From NCBI GenBank assembly GCA_037128175.1, contig JBAXWY010000041.1:1-25995 (forward strand): DNA of 25,995 nt, in the 5' to 3' direction. Under the pieces are notes generated by a model that worked only from the letters and a program-made list of their open reading frames with translations, had not been told where the DNA came from and did no database searches. Positions 273 through 17,226 of the stretch are shown piece by piece. Every line of letters begins with the position of its first letter. Within the stretch, counting starts at the first letter, position 1. Source of the DNA: Methanothrix sp. (lineage in GTDB: Archaea > Halobacteriota > Methanosarcinia > Methanotrichales > Methanotrichaceae). The translations under genes were made by a program, and so were the position numbers.

Positions 273-1229
273 TTATCCCATCTTCTCCCTCACCGGCGCC
301 AGTATCTCGTTCATGCACTCTGCGCAGGCCTTTTTGAGATCCATGGGGTGCAGGGCCCCGCTCACGTAGTCCGCTTCCATTGTCTCGTAGTTCTGATAAG
401 AAACATCCCCGCCGAACTTGGCAGGTCTCTTGATAGTCATCCCCGCCTCAATCCTGGGGAAGACGTGATACTTGCATATGGCCAGCACGGGATTGTTCTC
501 CACCACTTTTGCGGGACAAAAGGCGCTCTTGATCTTCTTTTCCACGTCCTCTGCCGGCTCGTCCACAGCAATGTTGTTTCCCTTGGAGGAGGACATCTTC
601 TCTCCATTCAGGCCGGCGATGAGAGGCGTGTGCATGCACACCGGCGCGGGCAGGCCCAGGCGGGGCAGCTCCTCACGAGCCAGCATGTGAATCTTCCTCT
701 GATCAATGCCGCCCACTGCCAGGTCGATCTTCAAATCGGCGATGTCGATGGCTTGCATGAGCGGGTAGATCATCTGCGATACCATGGGGTTCTCCGCACT
801 TCTGGAGACCTCATCCATGCTCCTCTTGGCTCGGTTGAGCGTGGTGTTCCTGGCTATCTGCAGAATCTTAAGCATGTAGTCCGGCTTGAGCTGATAATCT
901 GTGCCGTAGACAAACTCCGTTCTCTCCGGGTCTAAGCCCAGGGCCATGAAGCAGTCCCGGTTGTAGTCGGCAATTTTTCTCACCTCTTCCAGGGTGCCCT
1001 TCTCATTGAGGAAGGCATGCAGATCGGCTAAAAGGACGACGACGTCAAAGCCCACCTTCTGCAGGTCCAGGAGCTTATTGACCGTGAGCATGTGGCCCAG
1101 ATGTACCTTGCCGCTCGTCTCGTAGCCCACGTAGGCGCGCGGCCTGCGGCTCTGCTCCAAAAGGCCCTTGAGTTCGTCTACCGTCACTATCTCTTCAGTA
1201 TTTCTCATCACCAGCTCAAGCTTATCCAA
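273..1229 (-). CDS. tyrS: Tyrosine--tRNA ligase (archaeal type)
   Basis: AYVGYETSGKVHLGH (HIGH-like), YPLMQAID, GGIDQRKIHM and KMSSS motifs. Start moved from 1301 to TTG at 1229 (MDKLELV...), which is preceded by a GGTGA RBS-like sequence. Confidence 0.95.
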   Translation of the reverse strand: MDKLELVMRNTEEIVTVDELKGLLEQSRRPRAYVGYETSGKVHLGHMLTVNKLLDLQKVGFDVVVLLADLHAFLNEKGTLEEVRKIADYNRDCFMALGLDPERTEFVYGTDYQLKPDYMLKILQIARNTTLNRAKRSMDEVSRSAENPMVSQMIYPLMQAIDIADLKIDLAVGGIDQRKIHMLAREELPRLGLPAPVCMHTPLIAGLNGEKMSSSKGNNIAVDEPAEDVEKKIKSAFCPAKVVENNPVLAICKYHVFPRIEAGMTIKRPAKFGGDVSYQNYETMEADYVSGALHPMDLKKACAECMNEILAPVREKMG

Positions 1230-1329
1230 TGCACATTCACCAATCCTCACAAGAGGAATGGGGATGTATAATGCTTTTGGTTCATGTTCATAGGAAAACA
1301 ATTAATACTACCGTTGTTGATGGGCTGCC

Positions 1330-1512
1330 ATGCATAGGGGTAACTTTAGCCTGCCACGCCCTGGCTTAAGCCGCGAGAAGAATCTGGTTCTCATACTACT
1401 GGCCATCCTGGTGGCCCTGGTTCTCTGGGGAACCTTCTGGTGGCTGATGAGAATAGTGCTCTTTGTAGTAGTAGTCTACATTATCTATCAGGTGCTCAAG
1501 CAATACGTTTAG
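1330..1512 (+). CDS. Small membrane protein (two hydrophobic helices)
   Basis: 60-aa ORF with two long hydrophobic stretches, filling the gap between tyrS and mobA. Confidence 0.6.
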   Translation: MHRGNFSLPRPGLSREKNLVLILLAILVALVLWGTFWWLMRIVLFVVVVYIIYQVLKQYV

Positions 1513-1540
1513 AAATTGGTCTCATCCCGGCTCTACCTAT

Positions 1541-2188
1541 CTACCCGGGCCCGTGATCCAGCCAGAGCGCTCTGGCCTTTTCCAGATCTTCTCTGGTATT
1601 CAGATTAAAGAAGGTGAGAAGATCGGGATCCAGGGGGCGCAGCAGATCTACACAGACACGTCTGACGCGTAACTCCTGTAGTGGTGCATGAATTCTGCGC
1701 TCCGCCTTTTCCATAGCCCTCTCGCAGGCCAGCAGCATTTTTTTGCGGTGGTAGACGCAGTGAAGCGGCTCGAAAAAACCATTACTCTGCACGGGAACCG
1801 CCGCGTCAAAGTCCTCTTCGCCGGCCAGCTCGAAGAGCCTCTCGATTACCTGAAGGTTTAAAAACGGCAGATCGCACCCCGTGGCGAAGGCAAAGTTCCC
1901 ACGCGCTTCCTTCATCCCGGCAGAGAGGCCCGCCACCGGCCCAAATCCCGCCACGCGATCCCAGGTGAAGGTGACTTTCGGCTCCGCGGGAGGGGCAAAA
2001 TCCGAGATTATCCCTTCCAGGCGTTCGGCATGAGCCCCATCCCGGGCCACTACTACTATTTCATCAGCCGTCATGCTGAGCCGCTCCGCAGTCCAGCAGA
2101 TGAGCGGCTTTCCTTCGAACTCCAGGAGCGACTTTTCCGCTCCCAGGCGGCGGCCGTTTCCGCCGGCCAGGATCACTGCGGAGCGCAT
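1541..2188 (-). CDS. mobA: Molybdenum cofactor guanylyltransferase
   Basis: AVILAGGNGRRLGAEKSLL, GPVAGL, GCDLPFL, EPLHCVY and FFNLNTREDL motifs. Confidence 0.9.
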   Translation of the reverse strand: MRSAVILAGGNGRRLGAEKSLLEFEGKPLICWTAERLSMTADEIVVVARDGAHAERLEGIISDFAPPAEPKVTFTWDRVAGFGPVAGLSAGMKEARGNFAFATGCDLPFLNLQVIERLFELAGEEDFDAAVPVQSNGFFEPLHCVYHRKKMLLACERAMEKAERRIHAPLQELRVRRVCVDLLRPLDPDLLTFFNLNTREDLEKARALWLDHGPG

Positions 2189-2820
2189 AGCCTCCAGCCG
2201 CTCTCTTTGCAGTCCTCCTCCAGAGCCTTTAGAAGGGCTGCTTTGGGATTGGATTGCTTGACAAGGCTATGCAAAACAATATGCTCACGGCTTACCGATG
2301 CCGTACTCTCCCCTGCTTTGACAAGAATGCTCTTGATGAGAACCTCGTTTACCCTTCCCCCCGCCCGGCCCACCTCTTCATAGGCCAGCTTCTGAGTGAT
2401 GCGGTTGCCAAAGACTATGCATCCCACGCCGTCCCAGGCTCTGATCTTCGCTTCGCCGCCGCCTGCGCCTTTCTCACCTGCACCATCTGCGGCGTCGGCA
2501 TCTTCCCTGCATATTACGTCCACCTGCAAACTGGACCCAGGTGTGAGGTAAATTCTTCTGCGCCGGGAGAGCCTGGCCGATATTTCGGTGACCTCTCCCA
2601 CCAGCAAATCCCCCCGCCTCCAGACCTTCTCCCTGCCGTCAGAGATCTGCAAAGTGGCGCCTAGCTCTCTGGCTCTGTCTGCCAGCTCCTGATCATTTTT
2701 GATCTGCCCGGAGTAAAGCTCCTCTTCCAGCTTGGGGCAAGGGCCTACAAAAGCGATGGCCCGCCGATCGGCTCCAATTACTGCCTCCCGGCTGGCTGCC
2801 AGTGCTATGACCAGGGACAT
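2173..2820 (-). CDS. DUF2121 / Connectase-like protein (proteasome beta-subunit-related Ntn fold of methanogens)
   Basis: N-terminal (M)SLVIA..AVIGADRRAIAF, LEEELYSGQIKNDQEL, LVGEV, RRRIY, FGN..TQK and TASVS match the MJ0548/DUF2121 family as I recall it. Ser1 is the expected nucleophile after Met removal. Confidence 0.8.
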   Translation of the reverse strand: MSLVIALAASREAVIGADRRAIAFVGPCPKLEEELYSGQIKNDQELADRARELGATLQISDGREKVWRRGDLLVGEVTEISARLSRRRRIYLTPGSSLQVDVICREDADAADGAGEKGAGGGEAKIRAWDGVGCIVFGNRITQKLAYEEVGRAGGRVNEVLIKSILVKAGESTASVSREHIVLHSLVKQSNPKAALLKALEEDCKESGWRLCAPQ

Positions 2821-2865
2821 ATCAAATCCTCTTCATTTTAGTTGCGGATGTCATGTCGGTTAGGC

Positions 2866-2905
2866 GCTTTGTGCGTCCTTTGTGAGCTTTGTGATCTTTG
2901 TGGTT
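2866..2905 (-). repeat. ~9-bp periodic CACAAAG element
   Basis: Minus strand reads AACCACAAAG-AT-CACAAAG-CT-CACAAAG-GACG-CACAAAG-C, between folD and the Connectase gene. Confidence 0.8.
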
Positions 2906-2926
2906 TATTTTCGCTGCATTTTATGC

Positions 2927-3766
2927 TTACTTAGCCTGGTTCTCCGTCGCCAAAACGGTCTGGGAGAGCAGCATGGCCACCGTGAGCGGTCCTACCCCGC
3001 CCGGAACTGGGGTTATGGCCGAGGCAATATCCTTTACGGCCTCGTAATCCACATCGCCCACCGTCTTATCTCCAACCCGGTTGATGCCCACATCAAAGAC
3101 AATGGCCCCTGGCCGGACCATCTCCTTCTTGATCAGGGCCGGAACGCCTGCGGCTACTACCAATATCTCAGCATCTCGGGTGTGCTCGGCCAGATCTTTG
3201 GTAAAGACGTGGCAGACCTGCACCGTAGCATTGCGGCTGAGCAGCATGGCCGCCAGAGGCTTGCCGACAACATTGCTGTGGCCCACAATCACGGCCTCCG
3301 CCCCCTCCAGCTTCTTGCCCAGCCGCTCCAGGGCATAGATGATTCCCCTTGGTGTGCAGGGTACGAGGCGCTCCGTGCCCAGAAGAAGAGCGCCCATGTT
3401 CACCGGATGAAATCCGTCCACATCCTTCTCAGGCATTATGCTCATCATGGCCCTTTGCGGGCTCTGGCCTCTCGGCAGCGGCAGTTGCAGGAGAATGCCG
3501 TTTATGTCCGGACGGTCGTTCAGCTCCAATATTCTGGCTATGAGCTCTTCTTCAGAGCTGTTCTCGGGAAGCACCACATTCTCGGATCGAATGCCTACCC
3601 TAGTGCAGGCGGAATGCTTGAGCCGGATGTACATCTCTGAGGCGGGATTTTCTCCCACCAGCACTGTTGCCAGGCCCGGCACAATTGCCCTCTCTGCCAG
3701 CTTTTTTACCCTTCGGGCCGTCTCGACCTCAACCTCCGCCGCCAGAGCTTTTCCATCGATTATCAT
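2927..3766 (-). CDS. folD: Bifunctional methylenetetrahydrofolate dehydrogenase/cyclohydrolase
   Basis: [32 protein letters not shown] and [15 protein letters not shown] at 3766 overlaps the glyA stop (ATGA). Confidence 0.95.
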
Positions 3767-5010
3767 GCCAGGTCCGGATAGAGCGGGAACTGCCCGCACA
3801 GCTCACTGGCCTGTCTGCGAACGTCGGCTATCGTCTCTTCGTTCGTAATATCGCGAATCACTGAGGTGATCATATCGGCGATCTGCACCATCTGTTTTTC
3901 CATCATGCCCCTGGTTGTCATGGCAGGTGTGCCGATGCGAATGCCGCTGGTGACGAATGGCGTGGCCGGATCGAAGGGGATCATATTCTTGTTCAGGGTT
4001 ATGCCCGCTCTCTCGAGGGTTTCGTCGGCCACTTTACCGGTTATGCCTTCTTTGATCAGCTTGACCATCATGAGGTGGTTGTCCGTGCCGCCTGAGACCA
4101 GATCAAACTTGTTTTCCAGAAGCCTGTTCGCCAGGACACGAGCGTTCTTGACCACCTGGAACTGGTATTCTTTGAACTCGGGTGCCAGCGCTTCCTTGAA
4201 AGCCACCGCTTTTGCGGCTATGGCATGCATAAAAGGCCCGCCCTGAGTGCCCGGGAAGACGGATCTATCTACGGCAGCAGCAAGCTCCTCTTTACAAATG
4301 ATCAGTGCGCCCCTCGGTCCGCGCAGGGTCTTATGAGTAGTAGTGGTAACGATATCCGAGTAGGGCACGGGTGAGGGATGCGCGCCCACGGCACACAGGC
4401 CCGCGATGTGAGCTATGTCGGCCATGACCTTTGCCCCGACCTCATCGGCAATCTCGCGGACGACCTTGAAGTCTATGGTTCTGGGATAGCTGGAGGCGCC
4501 CACCACTATGAGCTGCGGCCTGTTCTTTCTGGCTATGGCCGCCATCTCGGAGTAGTCGAGCATCTCTGTATCGGGCGAGACGCTGTAAGGCACGATTTTG
4601 TACATCTTGCCCGAGAAGTTGACCGGGCTGCCGTGCGAGAGGTGGCCGCCGTGGGCCAGATTCATGCCCATGATGGTGTCGCCAAGCTTGAGCACGGAAA
4701 AGTAGGCTGCCATATTGGCTTGGGTGCCGCTCACCGGCTGCACATTGACATGCTCTGCGCCGGCAAAGAGCTTCTTGCAGCGCTCGCGAGCCAGATTCTC
4801 TGCCACGTCCACACAGGCCGTGCCGCGGTAGTAGCGTTTGCCTGGGTAGCCTTCCGCATACTTGTTGGTCATGACGCAGCCCTGGGCTTCCATGACGGCT
4901 CTACTTGCGAAGTTCTCAGAGGCGATCAGAATTATGTTATTTCGCTGCCGCTCCAGCTCAGCCTGGATCGCGGCTGCGATTTCGGGATCTTCAACGCTTA
5001 AAGGCTTCAA
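3763..5010 (-). CDS. glyA: Serine hydroxymethyltransferase
   Basis: [40 protein letters not shown] (PLP lysine), GGTDNHL and SGIRIGTPA. Confidence 0.97.
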
Positions 5011-5078
5011 TCAAATCACCGGTATATCATATCAGGATTGGAGGAGATGCAATGAGGAGAGCAAAATAGATTATGGTG

Positions 5079-5127
5079 GTAAACTACCCAATTCCTCCCA
5101 CTCCCTGAAGAGAGCGGGTCTTCCTGG
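5079..5127 (+). mobile_element. Isolated IS200/IS605-type end hairpin (remnant)
   Basis: CAATTCCTCCCACTCCCTGAAGAGAGCGGGTCTTCC: CCCACTC/GAGCGGG stem around CCTGAA. Shares the ATTCxTCCC..CCTGAA..GGGTCTTC layout with the element at about 25920-25950 (minus strand). Confidence 0.5.
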
Positions 5128-5194
5128 TGTTTTACTTTGACACCGTTTTGTAGAAACCATAACTCTTTATTATCTGCAGTTTTAAGGACATGAG

Positions 5195-5647
5195 ATGCTA
5201 AAGCGTGCCAGGATTATTGCCGATTACCAGTTTGGTAGAGGTGCAGGCGAGGCCCTTTTTCTTGATGACACAACCTACAGCCTCTCCAAAACGCGGCGGC
5301 TTAGGTACCTCTACTCGGGAAAGGAGAGGATCGTCACAGTTCGGGCCAGCGACAACCTCTTGACGCTCAGCATGATGGGCGCAAGACGGCTGCACGCCCG
5401 GTTCGAAAGCCCCCATCTGCGGGTTGTGGCTTCGGAGGATGCCGCGCCATTCGTCGCCAAAGGCGGCAATCTCTTTGCCAAGCATGTTTTAAGCGTGGAC
5501 CCACAGATTCGGGCTGGGGAAGAGGTGCTGGTTGTGAACTCTCAGGATCAACTGCTGGCCACGGGAACAGCCGTGCTCGCGCCTGAGGAGATGCTACAGA
5601 TCAAGCGCGGCATCGCGGTTGCTGCCAGAAAGGCCGCCGAGCATTGA
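5195..5647 (+). CDS. PUA-domain protein, likely the stand-alone C-terminal subunit of split archaeosine tRNA-guanine transglycosylase
   Basis: IADYQFGRGAGEALF, TVRASDNLLTLSMMGARRL, then PUA (FVAKGGNLFAKHV..IRAGEEVLVV..LLATG). Confidence 0.8.
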   Translation: MLKRARIIADYQFGRGAGEALFLDDTTYSLSKTRRLRYLYSGKERIVTVRASDNLLTLSMMGARRLHARFESPHLRVVASEDAAPFVAKGGNLFAKHVLSVDPQIRAGEEVLVVNSQDQLLATGTAVLAPEEMLQIKRGIAVAARKAAEH

Positions 5648-5681
5648 TCGGGCAGCCTTTTTCATCTTTTCTTTATAATTA

Positions 5682-6842
5682 TCACACTCTTCCCAGAGCT
5701 GATATGCCTCTGAACCTCTCCACCGCTTCGGCTATACACTGGGCCACATAGTCTACCTCTTCCGTTGTGTTCGATCGGCCCATGGTGATTCTCAGGGAGC
5801 CGTGGCAATCTTCCGGCTGGAGGCCCAAAGAGAGCAGCACGTGGCTGGGCTGCAGCTTATGCGAGGAGCAGGCCGATCCCGTGGAGACGGCTATGCCTTT
5901 GGAGTCGAGGAAAAGCAGCAGCGATTCGCCTTCCACATATTTGAAGCCGAAATTCAGGCTTCCGGGAAGCCTTCCCTTCATGGTTCCATTGATCCAGGCA
6001 TCCTTGACCTTTCCCAGGACCTGGCTTACAAGTTGATCCCGCAGCTTTGTCAGCCTCTGCCCCTCTGCGGCCATGCCTTCACAACACAGCTCTGCCGCTT
6101 TTGCCAGGCCGACGATGCCCGCCACATTCTCCGTTCCCGAGCGCAGGCCTCTTTCGTGCCCGCCGCCCTGGACGATGCTCTCCAGTTTTGTGCCCCGGCG
6201 AATGTAGAGCGCTCCCACGCCTTTGGGCCCGTAGAGCTTGTGGGCGGAAAGAGAGAGCAGATCGACACCAAGGGCGTTTACATCTGTGGGAATCTTGCCC
6301 ACGCTCTGCACGGCATCAGTATGCAGGTAGATGTCCTTTTCCGCAGCCAGTTTGCCAATCTCCTCCAGCGGCTGGATGGTTCCTATCTCGTTGTTGGCGT
6401 GCATGACCGAGATGAGAATGGTGTCGGGGCGAATGGCCGCCTCAAGTGTTGCCAGGTCCACCAGTCCCTCGCTCGTCACGGGCAGGTAGGTGACGGCAAA
6501 GCCCTCTTTTTCCAGTTTGCGGCAGGTTTCCAGGATGGCAGGATGCTCGACGCAGGTCGTGATAATATGTTTGCCCTTATCCTTATTGCGCCGAGCTATG
6601 CCTTTTAAGGCTAAATTGTCGGACTCTGTGCCCCCCGAAGTGAAGATGATCTCCTCCGGCATCGCTCCCAGGAGTTTTGCCACCTTCTCTCGGGATTCTT
6701 CCAGAGCCTCTTTTGCCTCCAGGCCAAAGCTGTGCAGGCTGGAGGCATTGCCGAACTTATCGGAAAGGTAGGGCATCATGGCCTGCAAGACCTGCGCCGC
6801 CACGGGAGTGGTGGCAGAGTGATCCATGTAAATACGCTTCAT
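5682..6842 (-). CDS. iscS: Cysteine desulfurase (IscS/NifS, group I)
   Basis: IYMDHSATTP, FTSGGTESDN, HTDAVQ, SAHKLYGPKG and STGSACSS (catalytic Cys). Start moved to ATG at 6842. Confidence 0.95.
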   Translation of the reverse strand: MKRIYMDHSATTPVAAQVLQAMMPYLSDKFGNASSLHSFGLEAKEALEESREKVAKLLGAMPEEIIFTSGGTESDNLALKGIARRNKDKGKHIITTCVEHPAILETCRKLEKEGFAVTYLPVTSEGLVDLATLEAAIRPDTILISVMHANNEIGTIQPLEEIGKLAAEKDIYLHTDAVQSVGKIPTDVNALGVDLLSLSAHKLYGPKGVGALYIRRGTKLESIVQGGGHERGLRSGTENVAGIVGLAKAAELCCEGMAAEGQRLTKLRDQLVSQVLGKVKDAWINGTMKGRLPGSLNFGFKYVEGESLLLFLDSKGIAVSTGSACSSHKLQPSHVLLSLGLQPEDCHGSLRITMGRSNTTEEVDYVAQCIAEAVERFRGISALGRV

Positions 6843-6942
6843 CGCTGAGAAATATGGGATGCTAAGGTAAATAGATGACGAACTTGGACCTGCCAATCCA
6901 GTATGAGAAACTATAAGTATGCAGCAAAAGGACGGGGAAATC

Positions 6943-7194
6943 ATGAATCTGTCCATCCCATTATTTTCAACGCCGCTATTGATTGCCGCGGCCCTCATCG
7001 CTTTGGGCTTCATAACCTATCTCTTCTCGGCCAGGCTTGGTGTGATTCTCATGGGCGCCGGCAGCGTGATCATGGGCGCGGTGGTCATATTCGATCTGCC
7101 CAACGGCATGGGACTGCAAAGCCTGGTTCTCTTCGGAATTACTGTGCTGGTGGGGGGATGGATGATGTATGTGGGAGTGAAGAACAGAGGATAA
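6943..7194 (+). CDS. Small membrane protein (about three TM helices)
   Basis: Highly hydrophobic ORF. Probable start at ATG 6943 (alternative 6919). Confidence 0.7.
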   Translation: MNLSIPLFSTPLLIAAALIALGFITYLFSARLGVILMGAGSVIMGAVVIFDLPNGMGLQSLVLFGITVLVGGWMMYVGVKNRG

Positions 7195-7263
7195 TAGATC
7201 TATCAAGAATAAATTTATATATCATCATTTACTATTAATATCTCGATCAGAAGGGATGTTAAA

Positions 7264-8181
7264 ATGAATCGAATTTCAGCTCCGGTAAAGATACTGCTAT
7301 TGCTAATTTTTTTTATATCTCTGACGTCAATTGCAGCTATGGCACAGGGTCCGGCCACCATCTATTTCGCAGATGCAATGGAAAACCCAGGAAAGGTTTA
7401 CTCGTCTGCTATGAGCGGAAGTGAGAATGTCTATTTCGCCCGCCCGTCCGGAAACATCTACACCTTTGCCTTCCATCCTTATGTGCCAGAGAAGCTATAC
7501 TATGTGAATGCTAATGATAATAAGATCTACCTGGCCACAAGGACCACAGGCGGGACCTGGACTACTACGGATCAGGTGGCCTACACGCATAGCACTTATA
7601 TCAGGGACCTGGAATACTACCCAACTGATTCCGGCGGACTTGAGATCTATTTTAGCGAGTCTAGTGGAGCTGGCGCAGACGGTCAGATCTACCTCTTATC
7701 AGGAGGGGCTGCAACTCCCTATTATACCGTGAGGCTCTCAGATGTCGATGGTTTTTGGGCAGGAGATTTCATCCATGACTCGGATGGCAATCTTTACCTC
7801 AGCTCAGGAAACCAGATCCCTGCCTCTATCTATCGAGTATCCGGCGGAACTGTCAGCAGGATCTACACCAGCAATAATGCTCCAATAACCGGCATGGCCT
7901 ACCGGGATGGAAGCATTTACTATGCCAATTGGGGCAATGAGATCCACCGCCTGGTGCTCTCAACGCTGGTTGATTCAGTCGTCAGGTCTCAGCCCGGACA
8001 CACCTGGATCTCAGATGTAGGACTTTCATCATTCGGCGCTACGACTGGGGTATTGGCAGACGCATCCGGCATCAGAAACTCAGGAATAGTGCCAAATGTC
8101 ATGGGAAAGATAGGGATGTCAAAGAACCCAATTGACCAATTGAATCCTCAGCCTGAGCCACCCAAACCCAAGTATTATTAA
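7264..8181 (+). CDS. Secreted beta-propeller-like protein with C-terminal LNPQPEPP motif
   Basis: Signal peptide (KILLLLIFFISLTSIAAMA), repeated blade-like units (KLYYVN, EIYFSE, DSDGNLYLSS, RDGSIYYANW), and upstream TTTATATA. Confidence 0.75.
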   Translation: MNRISAPVKILLLLIFFISLTSIAAMAQGPATIYFADAMENPGKVYSSAMSGSENVYFARPSGNIYTFAFHPYVPEKLYYVNANDNKIYLATRTTGGTWTTTDQVAYTHSTYIRDLEYYPTDSGGLEIYFSESSGAGADGQIYLLSGGAATPYYTVRLSDVDGFWAGDFIHDSDGNLYLSSGNQIPASIYRVSGGTVSRIYTSNNAPITGMAYRDGSIYYANWGNEIHRLVLSTLVDSVVRSQPGHTWISDVGLSSFGATTGVLADASGIRNSGIVPNVMGKIGMSKNPIDQLNPQPEPPKPKYY

Positions 8182-8188
8182 GAATTGG

Positions 8189-8237
8189 AAGAGGGGCGAA
8201 AAAAGACCCAATTGTCCAGTGTTTTTTGTCCCCTCTT
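8189..8237 (+). terminator. Inverted repeat / putative terminator
   Basis: AAGAGGGG-CG-AAAAAA ... TTTTTT-GT-CCCCTCTT followed by T-runs, just downstream of the stop codon. Confidence 0.5.
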
Positions 8238-8350
8238 TTGGCACATGTTTTTGGGCTCTGCACCTTTGGCCACCCGTCCGCTAAAAGATATCACCGTCCG
8301 ATAGCATTGAGGCTCGGAGAGGAAGCGAAGCCTTGTCCCCGGGACCATGG

Positions 8351-8364
8351 GAAATCCTTATATG
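8351..8364 (+). promoter_or_regulatory. BRE/TATA box of the tRNA gene
   Basis: GAAATCCTTATATG about 30-40 nt upstream of the tRNA 5' end. Confidence 0.55.
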
Positions 8365-8393
8365 CCACCTCTGCATCCTAGGGTGCGCCATGC

Positions 8394-8466
8394 GGGGCCA
8401 TAGGGTAGCCTGGTATCCTACAGGACTGGGGGTCCTGTGACCGGCGTTCAAATCGCCGTGGCCCCA
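8394..8466 (+). tRNA. tRNA-Pro (GGG)
   Basis: Acceptor stem GGGGCCA/TGGCCCC plus discriminator A; anticodon arm CAGGA-CTGGGGG-TCCTG; T arm CGGCG-TTCAAAT-CGCCG. No intron and no encoded CCA. Confidence 0.95.
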
Positions 8467-8563
8467 TTAAAGTGCTCTTTCGTTAGCGATTTTTAATTAA
8501 GTTGAGTCTTTATGTGTCACAGGATTGTGTCCTTTTCTCCCAGGAGATTTATCTTTGCAACTA

Positions 8564-8704
8564 ATGAATATAAATGAGTAGATAAAAAATACAACTGATT
8601 TTGAACCTGCCTTGAAGAGATTCCGGCGCTATCTTGAAGGCCAAGGAATGATGGAAGCCACTGTAACCGGCTATTTAGGCAACGTAGGAAGATATCTCAA
8701 ATTT
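8564..8704 (+). pseudogene. Tyrosine recombinase/integrase N-terminal (SAM-like) remnant
   Basis: Frame reads MNINE*IKNTTDFEPALKRFRRYLEGQGMMEATVTGYLGNVGRYLKF, fitting the F..YL..G....T...Y...V..FL pattern of integrase N-termini. In-frame TAG at 8579, truncated at about 8704, and located 100 bp after a tRNA. Confidence 0.65.
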
Positions 8705-9045
8705 TTACCCCTTGGATTCTCCTGGCAATCAGGAAGCTATTTGTAGGCGGAGTCAGTACATCTTGAATCCCGATTATTACCATTGTGGGTGCACCAATGG
8801 CATTCAAGCGTCCATCCACATCGAAAGCCATGGGACTAAAGCTGGGCCTCGTAGGCCGAAAGCGTGCCCGGAAAAGACTGGCCTGAATCTTCCGCCCCAC
8901 TGTATCCGGATGAGCATAAATGAAATATCCGATGCCATTTTGCGGGGCTATTCCCGCCTCTCACCTACTCCCTCCCGAAACATAGGCAGGATCAATCCCA
9001 AGGCCCTTCATCAGGCCCACAGTATCCCCGGCCACCCGGCTCAAT
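8697..9045 (-). pseudogene. Alpha/beta hydrolase remnant
   Basis: Fragments in different ORFs: AGDTVGLMKGLGIDPAYVSGGS* (degenerate nucleophile elbow) and FDVDGRLNAIGAPTMVIIGIQDVLTPPTNSFLIARRIQG. N-terminus and catalytic His region are missing. Confidence 0.65.
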
Positions 9046-9069
9046 GGCACAACCGGGGCCGGGCTGACC

Positions 9070-9176
9070 GTCGCGCCCCGCCCGCGTGCTCCCGTGCCCG
9101 TGAGCGAGTGGCAGCTGCCGGGCACCCGGGCCCGCCTGGCCGCCACCCACAGGGCTGCCGGGCCGGGAGGACGAGA
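9070..9176. repeat. GC-rich hairpin repeat, copy 1
   Basis: CGCGTGCTCCCGTGCCCGTGAGCGAGTGGCAGCTGCCGGGCACCCGGGCCCGCCTGG..., aligns along its length with copy 2. Confidence 0.85.
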
Positions 9177-9264
9177 GTCGCCAGGCTCCGGATGGATTTT
9201 CATGAGACCTTGGCGGGAAAAATTGTTTCTTGCTGTATCGAGTTTGCAATTATAAAGATAGAGT

Positions 9265-9428
9265 CCTCTGTGAGTCCTCCGTGCGCTCTGTGTCTCTGTG
9301 GTGGTAGTCCGTAAACCGTTGGTTATAACCAGTGGCTAACGACGTTTTCAACCACAGAGTTCACAGAGTACGCACAGAGCGACGAACTAACAACTGGAAA
9401 ACCATAGTAACCTGAGGTTAGCCACTGG
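9265..9428. repeat. Two head-to-head CACAGAG-periodic elements joined at a GGTTATAACC palindrome
   Basis: CTCTGTG repeats (9265-9305) and CACAGAG repeats (9351-9380) around the palindrome at 9321-9330. Perfect 12-bp inverted repeat CCAGTGGCTAAC (9329-9340) / GTTAGCCACTGG (9417-9428). Confidence 0.8.
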
Positions 9429-9464
9429 AAATAGCTAAGAGTCGCTTTAGTTTCAGCTTTGCCT

Positions 9465-9572
9465 CTCGCCCCCCGCCCGCGCGTGCTCCTGCGCCCGTAA
9501 GCGAGTGGCAGCAGCCGGGCTCCGGGCCCGCCTGGGCCGCCACTCACAGGGCTGCCAGGCCGGGAGGGCGAG
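9465..9572. repeat. GC-rich hairpin repeat, copy 2
   Basis: Nested pairings CTCGCCC/GGGCGAG, CCTG/CAGG, GCCC/GGGC and GAGTGGC/GCCACTC. Confidence 0.85.
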
Positions 9573-9628
9573 CGCCTGCTAGCAAACCCAAGGCCAAAAG
9601 AGTCCACAATGACGCCATGATTAGGTTT

Positions 9629-10021
9629 TTATTTTAACTCGGGTATCTTGCGTCCTTTTTCAGTGCGGTCAAAATCTGCATCGAAGCTTATTATCTGCAG
9701 GCCGTACTTCTGTGCGACGGCGTATTGGTAGGAATCATCAAAATCCAAACGGAACCTTTTCGAGACTTCTGCCAGAGCGAGAACCTCTTCCGGATCCAAC
9801 CCGATCACAGTTATTCCGGTCTTTATTATTACGTCCTTCACGAAGCTGACGTAGGTTTCATGTCTATTCCTCTGGAAAAGAAAAACACCAATGGAATGAA
9901 GTGAGAAATCCGTTATAAAAAGATCTGTGGATGGATTTTCGATAAACAAATGCTTGGCGGCCTTGCTCTTTTCTCGTTGCAGCAAGATTTACAAAAATAT
10001 ATTCGTGTCCAGGAGGTACAT
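9629..10021 (-). pseudogene. PIN-domain (VapC-like) toxin with a premature stop at codon 11
   Basis: ATG at 10021 overlaps the antitoxin stop (TGATG). Reads MYLLDTNIFL*ILLQREK with TAA at 9991-9989; the rest is intact (ITDFSLHSIG, LDFDDSYQY, IISFDADFD). Confidence 0.85.
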
Positions 10022-10227
10022 CAGGCTCCTCGCATCTTTCCGATCTCGTGCTGGAGTTCTACAGAAGAATACTGCTCACCCAGATCCGCAAGGGCTCCTT
10101 CCCAGTCAAAAGCCGGCACCTTTTGCTTCTTTTTAGATCTTTTCTCCAGCAAGAATTCTGCATAGCTCCGAACTTCTTTTTGAATGTCAAGAGGCAATTG
10201 CTCAACGAACCTAGCGAGGGTTGTCAT
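10021..10227 (-). CDS. DUF2281-family antitoxin
   Basis: QLPLDIQKEVRSYAEFLLEK...FDWEGALADL..YSSVELQH, translationally coupled to the PIN gene. Confidence 0.8.
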   Translation of the reverse strand: MTTLARFVEQLPLDIQKEVRSYAEFLLEKRSKKKQKVPAFDWEGALADLGEQYSSVELQHEIGKMRGA

Positions 10228-10314
10228 TTTTCTCAATAAAATATAGGATGCCCAAGCTTTTAATATTTATCGGCAAGGATGATTTCTCCTAATTTTTAAC
10301 TTAGTTTTTCCTGA

Positions 10315-10414
10315 GCCCGCACGCGTGGCTCCCGCGCCCGTAAGCGAGCGGACGCAGCCGGGCTCCGGGCCCGCCCGCACACGTTCGCACTTGGGCACGG
10401 GAGGCCGGTCGGGC
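10315..10414. repeat. GC-rich hairpin repeat, copy 3
   Basis: Shares GCGCCCGTAAGCGAG and GCAGCCGGGCTCCGGGCCCGCC with copy 2. The 3' arm is diverged but still complementary to the 5' arm. Confidence 0.8.
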
Positions 10415-10498
10415 CTGAGGGTCAGGCGGAGGCGGCTTTTCCAAGGGGCTGGGTTTTGGAGACGATTGCGATTTGCGGTTAATATTAGCAGATAATTA

Positions 10499-10556
10499 TA
10501 ACCTGAAAACTAACGATTTCACCACAAAGGCACGAAGGCACAAAGGACGCGCAAAG
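10499..10556 (+). repeat. CACAAAG-periodic element with TAACC leader
   Basis: TAACCTGAAAACTAACGATTTC-ACCACAAAGG-CACGAAGG-CACAAAGGACGCGCAAAG. Confidence 0.75.
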
Positions 10557-10594
10557 AGATTCGAGGCAGTCTCCGGCTTGACGATCCTTGCGGG

Positions 10595-10726
10595 CCGTGG
10601 GCAGGCCTCGCCCGGCTCTCGCTCCTGGCCGCTGCCATAGGCCTCCGGGCTGCGCCGCTCATCAGGGCAGACTGGCTTGCCTGGCGGGGACTAGGGGGCA
10701 GGAGGCCAGGCGGGCCAAGACCACGG
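10595..10726. repeat. GC-rich long imperfect hairpin 4
   Basis: CCGTGG/CCACGG, GGCCTCGCCCGGC/GCCAGGCGGGCC (imperfect) and CTCCTG/CAGGAG nested pairings. Confidence 0.6.
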
Positions 10727-10784
10727 ATTCACGCGAAGGCGCGAAGTTCCGATGAAAGAAGGACAATTATGGGCTGCTGCGCCG

Positions 10785-10862
10785 CCTGCCAGGCGGGCCC
10801 GGCTGCCCGAACACGCGTGCTCGGGAGAGGCGACAGCCGGGCCCTGCGCTGCATAGGGCAGG
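10785..10862. repeat. GC-rich hairpin 5
   Basis: Perfect 11-bp inverted repeat GGGCCCGGCTG (10795-10805) / CAGCCGGGCCC (10834-10844) enclosing CCCGA-ACACGCGTGC-TCGGG; outer CCTGCC/GGCAGG. Confidence 0.7.
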
Positions 10863-10915
10863 AAGATTTCATGGCGCTGAAAGGAGGACTGGACAACTGG
10901 ATTGCAGCCAATGGA
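10841..10915 (+). pseudogene. Possible rhodanese-domain C-terminal fragment
   Basis: ALRCIGQEDFMALKGGLDNWIAANG resembles the rhodanese L...G...v..L.GG...W motif; no active-site loop upstream. Confidence 0.4.
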
Positions 10916-11059
10916 AACGAAGGAGAACGTGCGCTCCCCTGTCAGCTATGCAGTGCGCCCAAGGGCGGAGCATCTTGCCGAAATCCACACAATACATTTT
11001 ATTGATAAAAAAGAAGTTTCGGATGGGGCCCCCGTAGCCCCATCGTTCTCTAATTTTCC

Positions 11060-14000
11060 TCAGTGCACCATCCTGCGATAGAGATATCCTGCCAAAGATA
11101 TTCCTATCGCCGCGAAGAGCGCCTCAAAACCGGGCGTTTCCTTTTCCACTGGCTTAGCCGGAACCGGCAAGGAGGTTTGGCCTAAAGTCGGCACTATGTT
11201 AATCTCATGCTCCGGTAGGGTGAGTGTCCTGCTCATGCCCTTCTCATCGGTGTAATTGACATAGGAAGCCAACTTCGGCTGGTTTACATCAGCAGGCAGT
11301 TTCCAGCAGAAGACCGCCTGGAAATCTGTGCTCCAGCAGCCGGAAAGATCGCCAATATCCCAGGTGATAGTAGTGGTAGTCCAATCCTTGCTGTCTCCGT
11401 TGAGACGGACCTTGCCTTGATCATCGGTTGTCGTGCTGTTGAGCAGAGCCAGATAGTTGGGCAGCACCTCAACAAGATGCACATTCTTCATCTTCGAGCC
11501 AGCAGTGGCCGTCTTGACGAGAGCTTCACCCAGCGCGGAGAGATCTTTGAGCTGGATGACATATCCGTTTTGGTTCTTGGCCAGGTTGTTGAGCATCCGG
11601 GAGGCTTTTGTATCCTTCATATCACCTACTACTATAGCGAATATCGTATAACCAGATAAACGTGCATCTGCGATATTCGCCGGCTTTATATATCCACTAT
11701 CGCTGGCGTCAGTAATGAAAACGATCTTCTTTTCTTTTCCGCCAACGATGCCGGCATCGTCAAAAGCTTTCAGAGCCGTATCAAGGCCGGTCGAATAGTT
11801 GGTATACTCGCCTTCAGCGAACTTTATCTTAGCTCCTCTGGCTGCAACTTCCGTGTAGTTATCAATGAGAGGCACCTCTATCCTGCTGTTTTTCTCATCG
11901 CTCCATGAGACCAGTCCGATCCTTGTAACGTGCTTCTTATCGTTTGCCGCAATATCTCCGGCAAGCTTTTGCACACCCTCGATTGCCGATTCGCTGAGAT
12001 TGTTGATGCTGGGTGAGTTATCGACAGCGATCACAATATCGGTGGGAATGTCCGCAATGTCCCCCAATGTACGGGATGGACAGAGCGTGATATTATAGTC
12101 GATGACATAGCCGTTATCCCTATCGATCTTCTCGGCAGAGATATTGCTTACATCCTTTATCACGGTGATCTCCGAATCGGTGCTGATGGGGTTCTTTGGC
12201 TCATCATTGATTCTGTGACAGCGCAGACAATAGTAGTTGCCGAAGGACTGCATATTGCTGACTCCAATGCTTAAATTGACTATTCTGATAGTGGGCGTTG
12301 TGCTAAGCCAGCCCTCAACAGTGGTCTCAGTTACGATATAGGCTCCTGGAGTCAACCTTTCCAAGGCAGTGATTCCATCCCCGTTGGTAGTCCTTGCAGT
12401 AAATACACTGCCGTTGGGGCATTTGACTGTGAAAATCCAGCCAGGCAAGCCGCTTTCGCCCGAATCATATATTCCATTTCGGTTTGTATCATTGAACTTA
12501 AATATTTCAACCCGGCTCGATTTGACATTGCCGAAAGGCGGCACAACAACATCTTCACCAGCTTTGATATCTACAGAAACGGCCAGAAGCGTTGTATTGA
12601 TCCAGCCATTTTGCAGAACCTCTCTGACGATATACCTTCCCGGCATCAGGCCTTTTGCAGTAGTGATGCCTTCAATATTAGTGGCATCTGTGGGGATTGT
12701 CCTGCCGTCCGGACCCTCTATATTGAAACTCCAGCCCGGCAAACCTTCTTCAGCACCATCTTGCTTGCGATTAAGATTTGTGTCGTTGAACTTCTTGAAG
12801 ATGAGACTGTTGACCCTATTGCCGAATTCAACCAACTGTGTTGGAGCTTTGCTTGATATCCTCACCTGCCGTGGATTGGATGTGGTGCATATCCAGCCCG
12901 GCTTGTCCGAGAGTTTTTCCGTAATAGTGCAGACGGCCTCAGGCAGCACTCCGGGAAGAATAACACTAATCCTGCCATCGACATCAGTGACGTAGGTTTT
13001 CGTAGCGTCCTGGTATGTGACGCTATACTCCCATCCTTCTAGCGGATATCTTTTGCCGTCGTCTTCGCCCTGATCCCTAATTCCGTTTTTATTGGCATCA
13101 TAGAACTTTTGGATGGCCAGGTTTACAGGCGGAATTCTGTTAAGGAATCTGCTTTGGCTGACATCTCCCGGAGCAAGCTCAACCTCTTGATCTCGCTGTA
13201 ACTCATAACCATCCTTAGGCACTTCATGGATGATGAATTTGCGTGCAGGCGGCTGGCAGGGATTGCCCGGGTCCGATGTGAAATCAACTACAAATGATGC
13301 CATTCCGCTTTCGTTGGTTGTAGCAGTTGGATTTCTAACCCCCGGACCTTGGAGACTAAAGGTCCAGCCCGCTCGCTCCTCGCCTGCATCAGCATTCTTG
13401 TTATCGTTTTTATCCTCGTACTTGCGCACAACGATTAATCCTGATTCAGGTACATTGAGAATGTCTAATACCTTTTCTTCATTGGGACCAAGTAAGACAT
13501 TTTGATCCTTTACCCGTATCCAGCCGTCTCTTGGCTCCTCGTGGATGATGTAGGTGTTTCTGGGCAGCTCTCCCGGCCTTGCCGGGTCGGATTTGAATCC
13601 GATATCGAATACGGCAAATCCGCTCTCATTGGTAGAAGCCCTCAGATTGGCGCCGGGACCAGTTAAGGTAATAGCCCAGTTGGAGCATCCTTCTTCCCTG
13701 TCATACTTGTTGTTGCCATTGATGTCCTCGTACTTGTGGATGATGATTCTGCCGCCCAGGATGACGTTCTCGATGGGCATAGTAGTGATATCTCCGGGAT
13801 ACAATTCCTTAACCATGGACTGGACGGGCACCCATCCTGCCCTCGGGGCCTCGGTTATGGAATATCTCTGCATGGGATTATCATTGGGAAGTCCGGTGAC
13901 GGACTGGAAGGGTATATCGGTTACAACTGCGATGCCAGTGCTATTGGTGGTCACCTTCTGGGAGAAATCAGGACCATCAATGGATGTCACCTGGAAGGCC

Positions 14001-14881
14001 CGGTTGGGAAGACCTTCACCTTCATCGTAATAACCGTTCTCATTCCGATCCTCGAATTTTTGGATTACAAGAGAAGCAGGCTTTAGCCTGTTAGCAAAGT
14101 AAAGTTTCTTTTCGCCCTTTTCTACAGTGTACACACCATTATTCAGCTCTTTTGGAGGTGCAGATTCCCATCCCTTTGAGGCTTTGCGGAGTGGGTCTTC
14201 GGTAATGGAATATTTATCTCCCACGGCGGCAGGATCAATGTTTATCGTTCCATTATTTCCTGTTTCAACCGTAGTGGCTTTGCCATTGGGATCCACTACC
14301 CTGAACTCCCAGCCGCGCAGGCTCTTCTCTGTTCCCTCATCGAACTTTCCATCTCCATTAAGATCCTCGAATTTTATAATTATAGGAGTTCCTGCTGGGA
14401 CCACGTTCAAGGAGACATATGCCCCTGCGTCGGGAAAGTTAATATCAGTAGTCACAATGTCAATGCTGGCTATGTAAACTCCTTCTTTGTCCTCATCGCT
14501 GAGAATCCAGGTGACATTATTATTTATCGTCCTGTTCGAAATCACTTTTAATGGGAAGGGTTTAGGACTAATTCCACCATCTTTCCTGGTGATGTTTAAA
14601 TAGCCTCTCTTAATATCGTAATTCAGCGTGGGTATAACAACGCAGTGAAGCTTAATAGTATTTCCTGGATATAGCAAAATAGGCTCAGGAAATTTATATA
14701 AGACCTCTTTATCATGTATTTTATTCTTAATTTGAATTTCCTTTATAATCTGTCCTTCCTGGGCCATAACTGCAACAGATCCGATCATGCCAAAAATCAT
14801 AATCATAGTTGCAATAGTCTTCCAGGACAGATTTTTGCTAGGTTTTGATTTACACCCTTCTTTTTTCTTATTATCAGCCAA
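11060..14881 (-). CDS. Large cell-surface adhesin-like protein: signal peptide, 7 CnaB/SdrD-B-like repeats, vWA domain, PGF-CTERM anchor
   Basis: Seven I.K(F/Y).D.N.(N/D)...D repeats; DIVIAVDNSPS (MIDAS DxSxS) and IVFITDA; C-terminus ETPGFEALFAAIGISLAGYLYRR. Confidence 0.9.
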   Translation of the reverse strand: MADNKKKEGCKSKPSKNLSWKTIATMIMIFGMIGSVAVMAQEGQIIKEIQIKNKIHDKEVLYKFPEPILLYPGNTIKLHCVVIPTLNYDIKRGYLNITRKDGGISPKPFPLKVISNRTINNNVTWILSDEDKEGVYIASIDIVTTDINFPDAGAYVSLNVVPAGTPIIIKFEDLNGDGKFDEGTEKSLRGWEFRVVDPNGKATTVETGNNGTINIDPAAVGDKYSITEDPLRKASKGWESAPPKELNNGVYTVEKGEKKLYFANRLKPASLVIQKFEDRNENGYYDEGEGLPNRAFQVTSIDGPDFSQKVTTNSTGIAVVTDIPFQSVTGLPNDNPMQRYSITEAPRAGWVPVQSMVKELYPGDITTMPIENVILGGRIIIHKYEDINGNNKYDREEGCSNWAITLTGPGANLRASTNESGFAVFDIGFKSDPARPGELPRNTYIIHEEPRDGWIRVKDQNVLLGPNEEKVLDILNVPESGLIVVRKYEDKNDNKNADAGEERAGWTFSLQGPGVRNPTATTNESGMASFVVDFTSDPGNPCQPPARKFIIHEVPKDGYELQRDQEVELAPGDVSQSRFLNRIPPVNLAIQKFYDANKNGIRDQGEDDGKRYPLEGWEYSVTYQDATKTYVTDVDGRISVILPGVLPEAVCTITEKLSDKPGWICTTSNPRQVRISSKAPTQLVEFGNRVNSLIFKKFNDTNLNRKQDGAEEGLPGWSFNIEGPDGRTIPTDATNIEGITTAKGLMPGRYIVREVLQNGWINTTLLAVSVDIKAGEDVVVPPFGNVKSSRVEIFKFNDTNRNGIYDSGESGLPGWIFTVKCPNGSVFTARTTNGDGITALERLTPGAYIVTETTVEGWLSTTPTIRIVNLSIGVSNMQSFGNYYCLRCHRINDEPKNPISTDSEITVIKDVSNISAEKIDRDNGYVIDYNITLCPSRTLGDIADIPTDIVIAVDNSPSINNLSESAIEGVQKLAGDIAANDKKHVTRIGLVSWSDEKNSRIEVPLIDNYTEVAARGAKIKFAEGEYTNYSTGLDTALKAFDDAGIVGGKEKKIVFITDASDSGYIKPANIADARLSGYTIFAIVVGDMKDTKASRMLNNLAKNQNGYVIQLKDLSALGEALVKTATAGSKMKNVHLVEVLPNYLALLNSTTTDDQGKVRLNGDSKDWTTTTITWDIGDLSGCWSTDFQAVFCWKLPADVNQPKLASYVNYTDEKGMSRTLTLPEHEINIVPTLGQTSLPVPAKPVEKETPGFEALFAAIGISLAGYLYRRMVH

Positions 14882-17107: not shown

Positions 17108-17190
17108 TTTTCCATTTTTTTGTTAGTAGCTCTGTGCGTTCTCTGTGAACTCTGTGCCTCTGTGGTGGAAACGTCATTAGACGCTGGTTA
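17108..17190 (-). repeat. CACAGAG-periodic element, close copy of 9326-9400
   Basis: Minus strand reads TAACCAGCGTCTAATGACGTTTCCACCACAGAGGCACAGAGTTCACAGAGAACGCACAGAGCTACTAACAA..TGGAAAA. Confidence 0.85.
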
Positions 17191-17226
17191 AGATGACTTG
17201 ATTTATTCCATTACCTTTATTTTATC

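Follow-up and report, generated by a model that had tools for sequence, protein, structure and literature searches.

To our knowledge, integrons are the sole well-understood builders of arrays of swappable gene cassettes. An integrase, IntI, and its site attI stand at the head of the array, and toxin-antitoxin (TA) cassettes are often carried. The attC sites are imperfect palindromes of 57-141 nt with an R'' box (RYYYAAC), an R' box (GTTRRRY) and a bottom strand whose folded form is conserved; where such sites form a cluster without an integrase, the term CALIN is used. Modular repeats of variable order are known as bacterial interspersed mosaic elements (BIMEs) from E. coli and, from Neisseria, as neisserial intergenic mosaic elements (NIMEs), dRS3 and 'minimal mobile elements'. 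In these mosaic repeats a short conserved repeat bounds variable modules, and whole-gene cassettes differ by strain, probably through recombination. We know of no BIME or NIME elements in kilobase-spaced polar arrays of TA operons. The pdif modules of Acinetobacter plasmids are Xer-dependent, have 28-bp sites which alternate in orientation and often hold TA pairs. Here we compare with these systems a locus from Methanothrix, a genus of acetate-using methanogens which are among the most abundant methane producers on Earth. The window, i.e., the whole stretch of DNA that was analysed, comprises 25,995 nt from Methanothrix sp. (assembly GCA_037128175.1, contig JBAXWY010000041.1). It is all of contig C41 of a 98-contig, 2.96-Mb assembly with 50.8% GC (genome G000). 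Between tRNA-Pro(GGG) at 8394-8466 and the gene of a 1273-aa surface protein on the minus strand (11060-14881) lies an array region. To judge from its sequence, this locus represents, in small and decaying form, a class of gene-cassette arrays specific to Methanothrix, the cassettes being mostly two-gene type II TA operons.

The array is built around five GC-rich islands, H1 through H5, at 9014-9198, 9453-9595, 10304-10454, 10562-10743 and 10761-10862, defined by 60-nt windows with at least 72% GC. The spaces between the islands hold a paired element of CACAGAG repeats (9225-9441), a PIN/DUF2281 gene pair on the minus strand (9629-10236), a single element of CACAAAG repeats (about 10440-10570) and a CACGCGAAGGCGCGAAG motif (10730-10746). 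An earlier inspection of the letters without database searches, termed the sequence-only reading below, had claimed that GC hairpins alternate with periodic elements and TA cargo; this alternation is confirmed over 9014-10862. The islands are related to each other. H1 and H2 are 88% identical across 108 nt; H3 matches H2 over its first 61 nt with 88.5% identity. The GC arms share a quasi-palindromic core of 12 nt, GCC(R)G(K)CGGGCC, and this core is polar. It is on the minus strand at 9129 and 9525 and on the plus strand at 10404, 10705 and 10788. From this strand pattern it follows that two arrays of opposite polarity meet at H3; the left half of H3 has a degenerate minus-strand core at its end (about 10366-10376), and its right half carries the plus-strand core GCCGGTCGGGCC at 10404-10415. 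The polarity switch around the PIN/DUF2281 cassette is repeated in G118, a relative sequenced with long reads.

The view of the islands as folded single-stranded DNA sites did not survive. Folding energies of H1 through H5 as single strands are inside the range of dinucleotide shuffles (z = 0.22, 0.34, -0.49, 0.50 and -1.60). RNAalifold, applied to 12 copies of the H1/H2 type and to 16 short and long sites, yields no consensus long hairpin and covariation terms of about zero; in both alignments just small invariant hairpins appear, including the GGCC..GGCC stem of the core. As the islands fold no better than shuffles, 'hairpin' stands for imperfect palindromes in DNA of very high GC content rather than for a structure that has been demonstrated. 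The conserved feature is a sequence, the polar 12-nt core. Read in core orientation, the 12 aligned H1/H2-type copies are constant in the half upstream of the core; their downstream half is of three unrelated types, one of which is the DNA labelled 'hydrolase' in the window (see below). In the alignments of the GC-rich junction repeats no terminal inverted repeats and no target-site duplications were seen. The one clean case of presence and absence is the tandem gain of one 275-bp unit bounded by a 24-bp repeat, genome versus genome.

At least eight other loci in G000 hold such arrays. There the same junction repeats divide cassettes that are mostly TA pairs, and the designation of the locus as a cassette-like array is thereby upheld. 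According to a Pfam search of the open reading frames (ORFs) in the arrays the PIN/DUF2281 cassette is present in the window and on C19. C44 carries PIN plus antitoxin, a lone UPF0150/HicB-like gene, ParE/RelE and HepT/MNT, C14 and C69 carry DUF4258/MqsA-like genes and HicAB, C17 carries MazF and RelB/ParE, and C51 carries ParE and HicAB. The cargo is biased: by manual comparison the arrays, about 1.3% of the genome, contain 10 of its 38 PIN, HicA and ParE matches (15 + 13 + 10). A minority of the cassettes contain defence genes, further small genes, fragments of genes or a miniature inverted-repeat transposable element (MITE), and at C14 32.5-34.2 kb units are in tandem without any cassette. 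On C44 cassettes start directly after the cores at 20305, 20906 and 21625. A second repeat family exists at C4 70.8-78 kb (L129), with five GC-rich direct copies of 150-200 nt about 1 kb apart, every one ending in GGGCGCGGTCGGGCC. These repeats divide PIN pairs, a Fic/DUF433-like pair and a helicase-HNH gene, the latter two labels being read from ORF translations. The helicase and HNH-like gene (882 aa, AT-rich) fills one cassette position (L129 4203-6851). At the cassette-proximal end both repeat families have the GGTCGGGCC core in common; elsewhere they differ.

In G000 the core motif has 47 matches versus 9 in the reversed control, and an 18-nt form, GAGGCCGGTCGGGCCTGA, with up to 3 mismatches has 34 versus 4. 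Inside each of the arrays on C14, C17, C19, C44 and C51 all core matches are on one strand; across the genus table, 14 of the 15 clusters of at least three core sites are strand-uniform (manual count). Of 58 other Methanothrix genomes 26 contain the exact 16-nt core pattern, the reversed control giving 0-1 matches per genome. GGGCCCGCCTGG was rejected as a universal apex motif; because just 9 exact copies exist it was replaced by the broader core. In viral contigs the 16-nt core has 27 matches, about the chance number as estimated from a rough collection size, and none fit the profile of the composite unit described below.

At fixed loci the cassettes turn over rapidly. The sequence-only reading had set itself the test of variable cargo between conserved repeats, and indeed the cassettes differ among close relatives. 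The window array measures 2.4 kb, the orthologous array in G118 more than 11 kb, with IS21, acylphosphatase-fusion genes, HicAB and a ParE-like pair. Between the two, the PIN/DUF2281 cassette alone reaches 95.9% identity; the remaining G118 array shows either 77-84% identity, in repeat sequence, or no match of at least 150 bp in G000. At 90-96% identity the window cassette is found in two other genomes from core to core (9514-10363 in G118, 9515-10376 in another metagenome-assembled genome, MAG), i.e., the homology begins inside H2, at 9514/9515. The toxin of the window pair is probably dead, as judged from a premature stop codon, while the DUF2281 gene stays open; the orthologous PIN gene of G118 is intact (130 aa) and otherwise nearly identical. 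A second fixed locus is the array on C44, continued by the end of C11, which shares its flanking housekeeping genes with L131 of G118 (flavodoxin-like/DJ-1; ketol-acid reductoisomerase/ilv). The flanks are 94-98% identical, the first PIN cassette 91.6%, and no other cassette attains 85%. Another MAG has the RelE and HicB cassettes of C44 at 95% identity, in reversed order and with a unit between them. In another metagenome, contigs run from about 9051-9149 straight on to 9470-9561, leave out 402-457 nt and have a single junction repeat and no paired CACAGAG element, which is a difference of one period. 'Go-back' read joints were rejected as evidence for circles; they match the periodic layout of other arrays. 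In G118 an element of the IS21 type (IstA 497 aa, IstB 235 aa) is in a cassette position (L126 on G118:C1, 15044-17248), and a TnpB (OrfB_IS605) gene is at the edge of its other array (L131 14433-15407).

Homology breaks in excess at the core. Inside arrays we collected 21 distinct ends of blocks of at least 300 bp with at least 90% identity. Six of the 21 are within 15 bp of a core, as compared to 4.8% for random positions, an about six-fold enrichment.

The single CACAAAG element is part of a larger entity. A profile made from 10305-10765 (H3, P3, H4 and tail) has 189 matches in G000, the short ones being matches to what we call the P-core. The long ones group on C14 at 32.5-36.3 kb, C44 at 18.8-24.2 kb, C17 at 41.5-49.7 kb and C19 at 19.0-24.5 kb, with further ones on C51 at 14.0-15.8 kb and on C52, C9, C11 and C69. 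The consensus order of this composite unit is left GC arm, P-core, right GC arm and tail; therefore the CACAAAG element and the CACGCGAAGG motif both belong, as modules, to a single unit. In G000 the P-core pattern was matched 34 times. Of the 58 other Methanothrix genomes 24 have it, and none of 46 genomes from other genera of the family do; the reversed control has 0 matches. Within one unit copy the heptamers are all the same variant, CACAGAG, CACAAAG or CGCAGAG, concerted over 3-4 repeats. Examples are window 10520-10560, C44 20090-20130 and C19 20208-20515. On C12 (11872-12237) a P-core points at the start codon of a gene of housekeeping appearance, about 35 bp ahead of it, which fits a role as mobile promoter or leader. 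P-cores also bracket a group of genes on C73 (446-3327; P-cores at 363-451 and 3349-3438), which by ORF translation are Zn-type alcohol-dehydrogenase-like, CobT-like and acylphosphatase-like. These are the genes which follow tRNA-Pro in the closest relative, G013, where 93-96% identity to the window ends at 8467, the base after the tRNA, and different genes lie beyond. This suggests rearrangement via these repeats.

The paired CACAGAG element is of another kind. BLAST of 9196-9454 returned 134 matches genome-wide, of which about 100 span the core 9262-9320 and many are at contig ends; read depth is about 70-fold that of the flanks. The element, termed MITE-A, has about 225 bp with 17-bp inverted ends, and the terminal inverted repeat (TIR) GGYTCYTCGCTRTTTC is present in most copies (17 long copies aligned). 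At least five copies, on C1, C20, C66, C6 and C3, have matching A/T-rich flanks of 8-9 bp, i.e., target duplications. Each half consists of a P-core, TATAACC..CTAACGA..CCACAGAG, plus heptamer repeats and diverges from a GGTTATAACC centre; the P-core module of the window (10440-10570) is homologous to each half. With TIRs, target-site duplication, many copies and no coding capacity, 9225-9441 is a conventional MITE that occupies a cassette position. The 55 TIR matches in the G000 assembly include no pair 400-6000 bp apart as expected of an autonomous partner; nine pairs spaced 150-250 bp are the MITE copies themselves. Two additional P-core/MITE-A fragments were noted in C41 beyond the array (2823-2907 and 17108-17191). 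The sequence-only reading had treated the periodic elements as one class. This has to be revised: the paired one is a MITE, the single one a module of the composite junction unit.

Table 1. Coordinates of the features in and next to the array of the window.
Feature	Position	Strand	Remarks
tRNA-Pro(GGG)	8394..8466	+	ARAGORN; Rfam tRNA 55.6 bits
XerA-like tyrosine recombinase, N-terminal remnant	8612..8746	+	44 aa, weak call; PF13495 E 0.009
Frame-broken ORF pieces	8697..9060	-	'hydrolase remnant' label unverified; FSH1 E 0.32 sole Pfam match
Junction repeat H1	9066..9186	-	core GCCAGGCGGGCC at 9129-9140, minus strand
MITE-A, 'paired CACAGAG elements'	9225..9441	.	two P-cores diverging from GGTTATAACC centre; ends of window copy degenerate
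Junction repeat H2	9463..9586	-	core GCCCAGGCGGGCC at 9525-9537, minus strand
PIN toxin gene	9629..10021	-	Pfam PIN E 3.4e-11; premature TAA at codon 11 (9989-9991)
DUF2281 antitoxin-like gene	10021..10236	-	71 aa, Pfam E 3.5e-14
H3, head-to-head junction	10305..10420	.	left half 88-92% identical to left half of H2 (48-61 nt compared)
P-core module, 'CACAAAG element'	10440..10570	+	TATAACC..CTAACGA..CCACAAAG, then heptamer repeats
Junction repeat H4, right GC arm of composite unit	10575..10725	+	core GCCAGGCGGGCC at 10705-10716
Tail module with CACGCGAAGGCGCGAAG (10730-10746)	10726..10770	+	conserved in composite unit, profile positions about 421-472
Junction repeat H5, variant of left GC arm of unit	10770..10865	+	core GCCAGGCGGGCC at 10788-10799
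'Rhodanese remnant', label unsupported	10866..11005	+	no Pfam match up to E 5

The gene remnants which the sequence-only reading had named at both ends of the array fared differently. The integrase call is weakly supported: in tblastn the remnant shows 47% identity over 36 aa to an intact XerA-like integrase on C5, at the N-terminus of the latter, and 40% over 45 aa to C38. Neither the hydrolase nor the rhodanese label is sustained by Pfam (Table 1). DNA resembling the 'hydrolase' pieces is repeated three times beside junction repeats of G118 (L126rc 176-352, 6129-6255 and 7572-7843). The 'rhodanese' stretch is conserved beside the last junction repeat in G118, with 78.5% identity across window 10375-10952. 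From the gene of the surface protein on the right, only the 3' end and the adjacent spacer (10981-11135) match G118 at E 1e-8 or better; the C-terminus of the protein resembles what we take to be an archaeal sorting signal of the PGF-CTERM type.

How do such arrays come about? The explanation which we put first, tentatively and with less than even confidence, is that they are integron-like cassettes with a new kind of site and a putative recombinase acting from elsewhere in the genome. The window would then comprise a leftward array of minus polarity, i.e., the DUF2281-PIN cassette, H2, MITE-A, H1 and ORF fragments, ending at tRNA-Pro, and a rightward array of plus polarity, i.e., H3, the P-core module, H4, the tail, H5 and a fragment. 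Cassettes would be gained, lost and reshuffled via recombination at the core or no more than about 15 nt from it. Exchange partners might be junction repeats of one array, those of different arrays, or incoming DNA. The logic would be that of an integron, a cassette plus its own 3' site; the site would be read as a double-stranded sequence, not as a folded attC, and the recombinase would be encoded elsewhere. We infer that exchange may be site-specific and that the enzyme may act from a distant position in the genome. Of the gene-capture system proposed by the sequence-only reading the cassette array and the variable cargo remain; folded single-stranded sites and a tRNA anchor do not. In line with its idea of a recombinase encoded elsewhere or decayed, none is encoded beside the arrays: no tyrosine recombinase or Y1 transposase is located within 6 kb of a unit match, and the flanks of C44 and L131 are housekeeping genes.

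A number of observations weigh against core-targeted recombination. Most of the block ends, 15 of 21, are more than 15 bp away from a core. Some junctions are at other short GC-rich identities, e.g., GCCGGGCC or GGGCCC, and the off-core junctions fit homologous or microhomology-mediated exchange equally well. The cassette genes face either way with respect to the sites: they are opposed on C44, C14 and C19 and in the window, run in the same direction on C51 and C4, and are mixed on C17; a strict gene polarity relative to the sites is ruled out by C51, C4 and C17. Neither a circular intermediate nor an empty site was seen. The search for an enzyme adds to these points. The tyrosine recombinases of G000 are two intact XerA-like proteins, both under the XerA equivalog cut-off, plus fragments; none of the 6 PF00589 matches in this genome and none of its four Y1_Tnp loci are within 6 kb of a unit match, and there are no matches in G000 to serine recombinases/resolvases, IS110 or DDE_Tnp_1. 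The Y1 locus on C8 is flanked by small hairpins of its own, unrelated to the junction repeats. Hairpin elements of the IS200/IS605 or REP/RAYT type were ruled out, the Y1_Tnp loci being unlinked to units. Across 59 genomes both families of XerA-like integrases are sporadic and show no correlation with arrays. At the thresholds used neither family is present in G076 (97% complete, 9 core sites) or G012 (75% complete, 19 core sites), and many array-free genomes carry them. Finally, all genomes are metagenome assemblies in which repeats can be misjoined, and the independent comparison consists of the one long-read relative, which has the same architecture.

Close behind core-targeted recombination, and likewise with less than even confidence, we rank the possibility that no dedicated system exists. 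Lineage-specific mosaic intergenic repeats, similar to BIME, NIME or BOX, and MITEs would pile up in dispensable TA and defence islands. Cassette differences would arise between these repeats from ordinary homologous recombination, from unequal crossing-over and from events at microhomologies; arrays of one direction would persist, since with inverted copies the chromosome would be inverted or broken. The modular build of the repeats agrees with this, the right half being constant and the left half of three types, as do the tandem units without cassette on C14, the genomes which differ by exactly one 275-bp unit with a 24-bp repeat at its bounds, and the variety of short GC-rich identities at junctions. 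Further, MITE-A demonstrates that transposition contributes, no recombinase co-occurs with arrays, and an inversion of about 8 kb beside the array distinguishes G000 from G118. Left unexplained are the unrelated TA families each lying between repeats, the retention of the GGTCGGGCC core at the cassette-proximal end of two families and the about six-fold enrichment of block ends within 15 bp of the core. Considerably less probable, and in our view unlikely, is that the composite unit is a small-RNA gene or a promoter/leader module and that the arrays are clusters of such genes among TA loci. On this view the archaeal TATA element would be TATAACC, the 5' leader would correspond to the run of heptamers, and the GC arm would act as structured RNA. 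This would account for the strong conservation of the P-core between species, a T5 run after the tail in some copies, the copy about 35 bp ahead of a housekeeping gene and the heptamers which vary in concert per copy, yet cassette turnover is left unexplained, the GC arms differ by indels, and the alignments are without consensus structure or covariation. Rfam has no match for the unit: an E-value search of 8300-11100 (E up to 1) returned the tRNA only, and Rfam 15 at gathering threshold returned no match in the whole window, not even the tRNA, which looks like a filter effect. The single run from an RNA library holds 7% of the sampled words, in contigs of a depth too low to be capable of showing transcription.

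A tRNA-anchored island, the product of successive integrations at tRNA-Pro with a decayed integrase and the hairpins as relics of att sites, is quite improbable. The integrase remnant begins 146 bp past the tRNA, synteny with the closest relative breaks precisely at the tRNA 3' end, and in another relative an insertion sequence is located at this 3' end. However, this end has no copy of more than 15 nt elsewhere in the genome, the core is unrelated to the tRNA, and other arrays are situated between housekeeping genes without a tRNA. The linkage is lost in G013, G001 and G118. In G118 tRNA-Pro is about 10 kb away from the array and inverted along with window segment 273-7203. A comparison of L128 (G118:C1:232001-250000) with window 273-8466 places one inversion breakpoint at the border of tRNA and array and the other near the left end of the window, where the contig stops; the segment through tRNA-Pro is inverted relative to the array. 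Thus, the proposed tRNA anchor has to be abandoned; tRNA-Pro is the left border of the variable region in G000 only. Even less credible is an assembly artefact in which high-copy repeats were wrongly joined and the alternation is only apparent. In the sole public run which holds the entire stretch the contigs split inside the high-copy cores, within MITE-A at 9290-9382 and within the P-core at 10537-10541; because of these breaks the two joins depend on the original assembly. Further, MITE-A terminates many contigs of G000. Against this, the unique sequence on either side of both breaks is covered without differences, the PIN/DUF2281 cassette is found again in the long-read relative, enclosed by repeats of the same kinds and with the same polarity switch, and similar arrays are present in 26 other genomes. 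Least probable of all, and hardly to be entertained, is a canonical integron or CALIN whose attC sites have diverged beyond recognition by eye. Polar arrays of short TA-rich cassettes which vary among relatives, without an adjacent integrase, are CALIN-like, and GTCGGGC in the core agrees with the R' box at 6 of 7 positions if we take the box consensus to be GTTRRRY. The inverse-core partner is lacking. The sequence-only reading had seen no canonical attC ends, and there are none; no R'' partner was seen in the aligned sites. There is neither a conserved hairpin nor covariation, and folding equals that of shuffles; an IntI-type integrase with attI is not near any array, as no PF00589 match lies within 6 kb of units, and the cassettes are chiefly two-gene operons in both orientations. 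The accessible main text of the paper on archaeal integrons (PMC9668308) has no mention of Methanothrix; in the accessible supplement one Methanotrichaceae MAG of another GTDB genus, Fen-7, is listed with a count of 2, putatively attC sites.

The origin of cassette arrays and of their sites is an open question. Methanothrix displays an integron-like outcome with unrelated sites and no linked integrase. It is possible, although far from assured, that a subclade of Methanothrix harbours at many loci a second archaeal cassette-capture system that is unrelated to integrons, with polar, GC-rich sites of about 100-200 nt which are read as double strands and end in a core of the GGTCGGGCC type, and with a recombinase acting from elsewhere that would assemble and reshuffle TA and defence cassettes. 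In the literature reached by full-text searches no description of the junction repeats was found. Should the recombinase be found, a new cassette system would be at hand and possibly a tool for Methanothrix, which lacks genetic tools. Should none exist, plain recombination among mosaic repeats can mimic an integron, and caution would be called for when arrays in metagenomes are designated 'CALIN-like'.

Among known systems, pdif modules are similar in that discrete modules, often TA pairs, have short recombination sites at their borders and depend on a recombinase encoded elsewhere, which in the Methanothrix arrays would be putative. The arrays differ in that the sites are long and direct and have no evident link to XerA. 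MITE-A at 9225-9441 conforms to MITEs with its about 225 non-coding bp, 17-bp TIRs, 8-9-bp duplications and about 100 core matches, and it breaks the assembly; in contrast to a typical MITE it is without an autonomous partner in G000 and has an internal P-core in common with the composite unit. With BIME and NIME elements the arrays share modular repeats, a short conserved bounding repeat and whole-gene cassettes that vary between conserved flanks, whereas the sequences are unrelated and the lineage is archaeal. From a CALIN they are set apart by the lack of R''/R' boxes, of a conserved folded hairpin and of IntI. The sites are mosaic and GC-rich, of about 90-200 nt, with a GCC(R)G(K)CGGGCC core; most cassettes are operons of two genes, which may face either way, a MITE or non-coding modules take some of the positions, and two arrays can abut head-to-head. 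The likeness to a CALIN is nevertheless extensive: site-like repeats in the same direction between short cassettes, a TA-rich cargo, several arrays per genome without adjacent integrase, strong differences in content among close relatives, and blocks of homology which tend to equal a cassette plus the site on one side.

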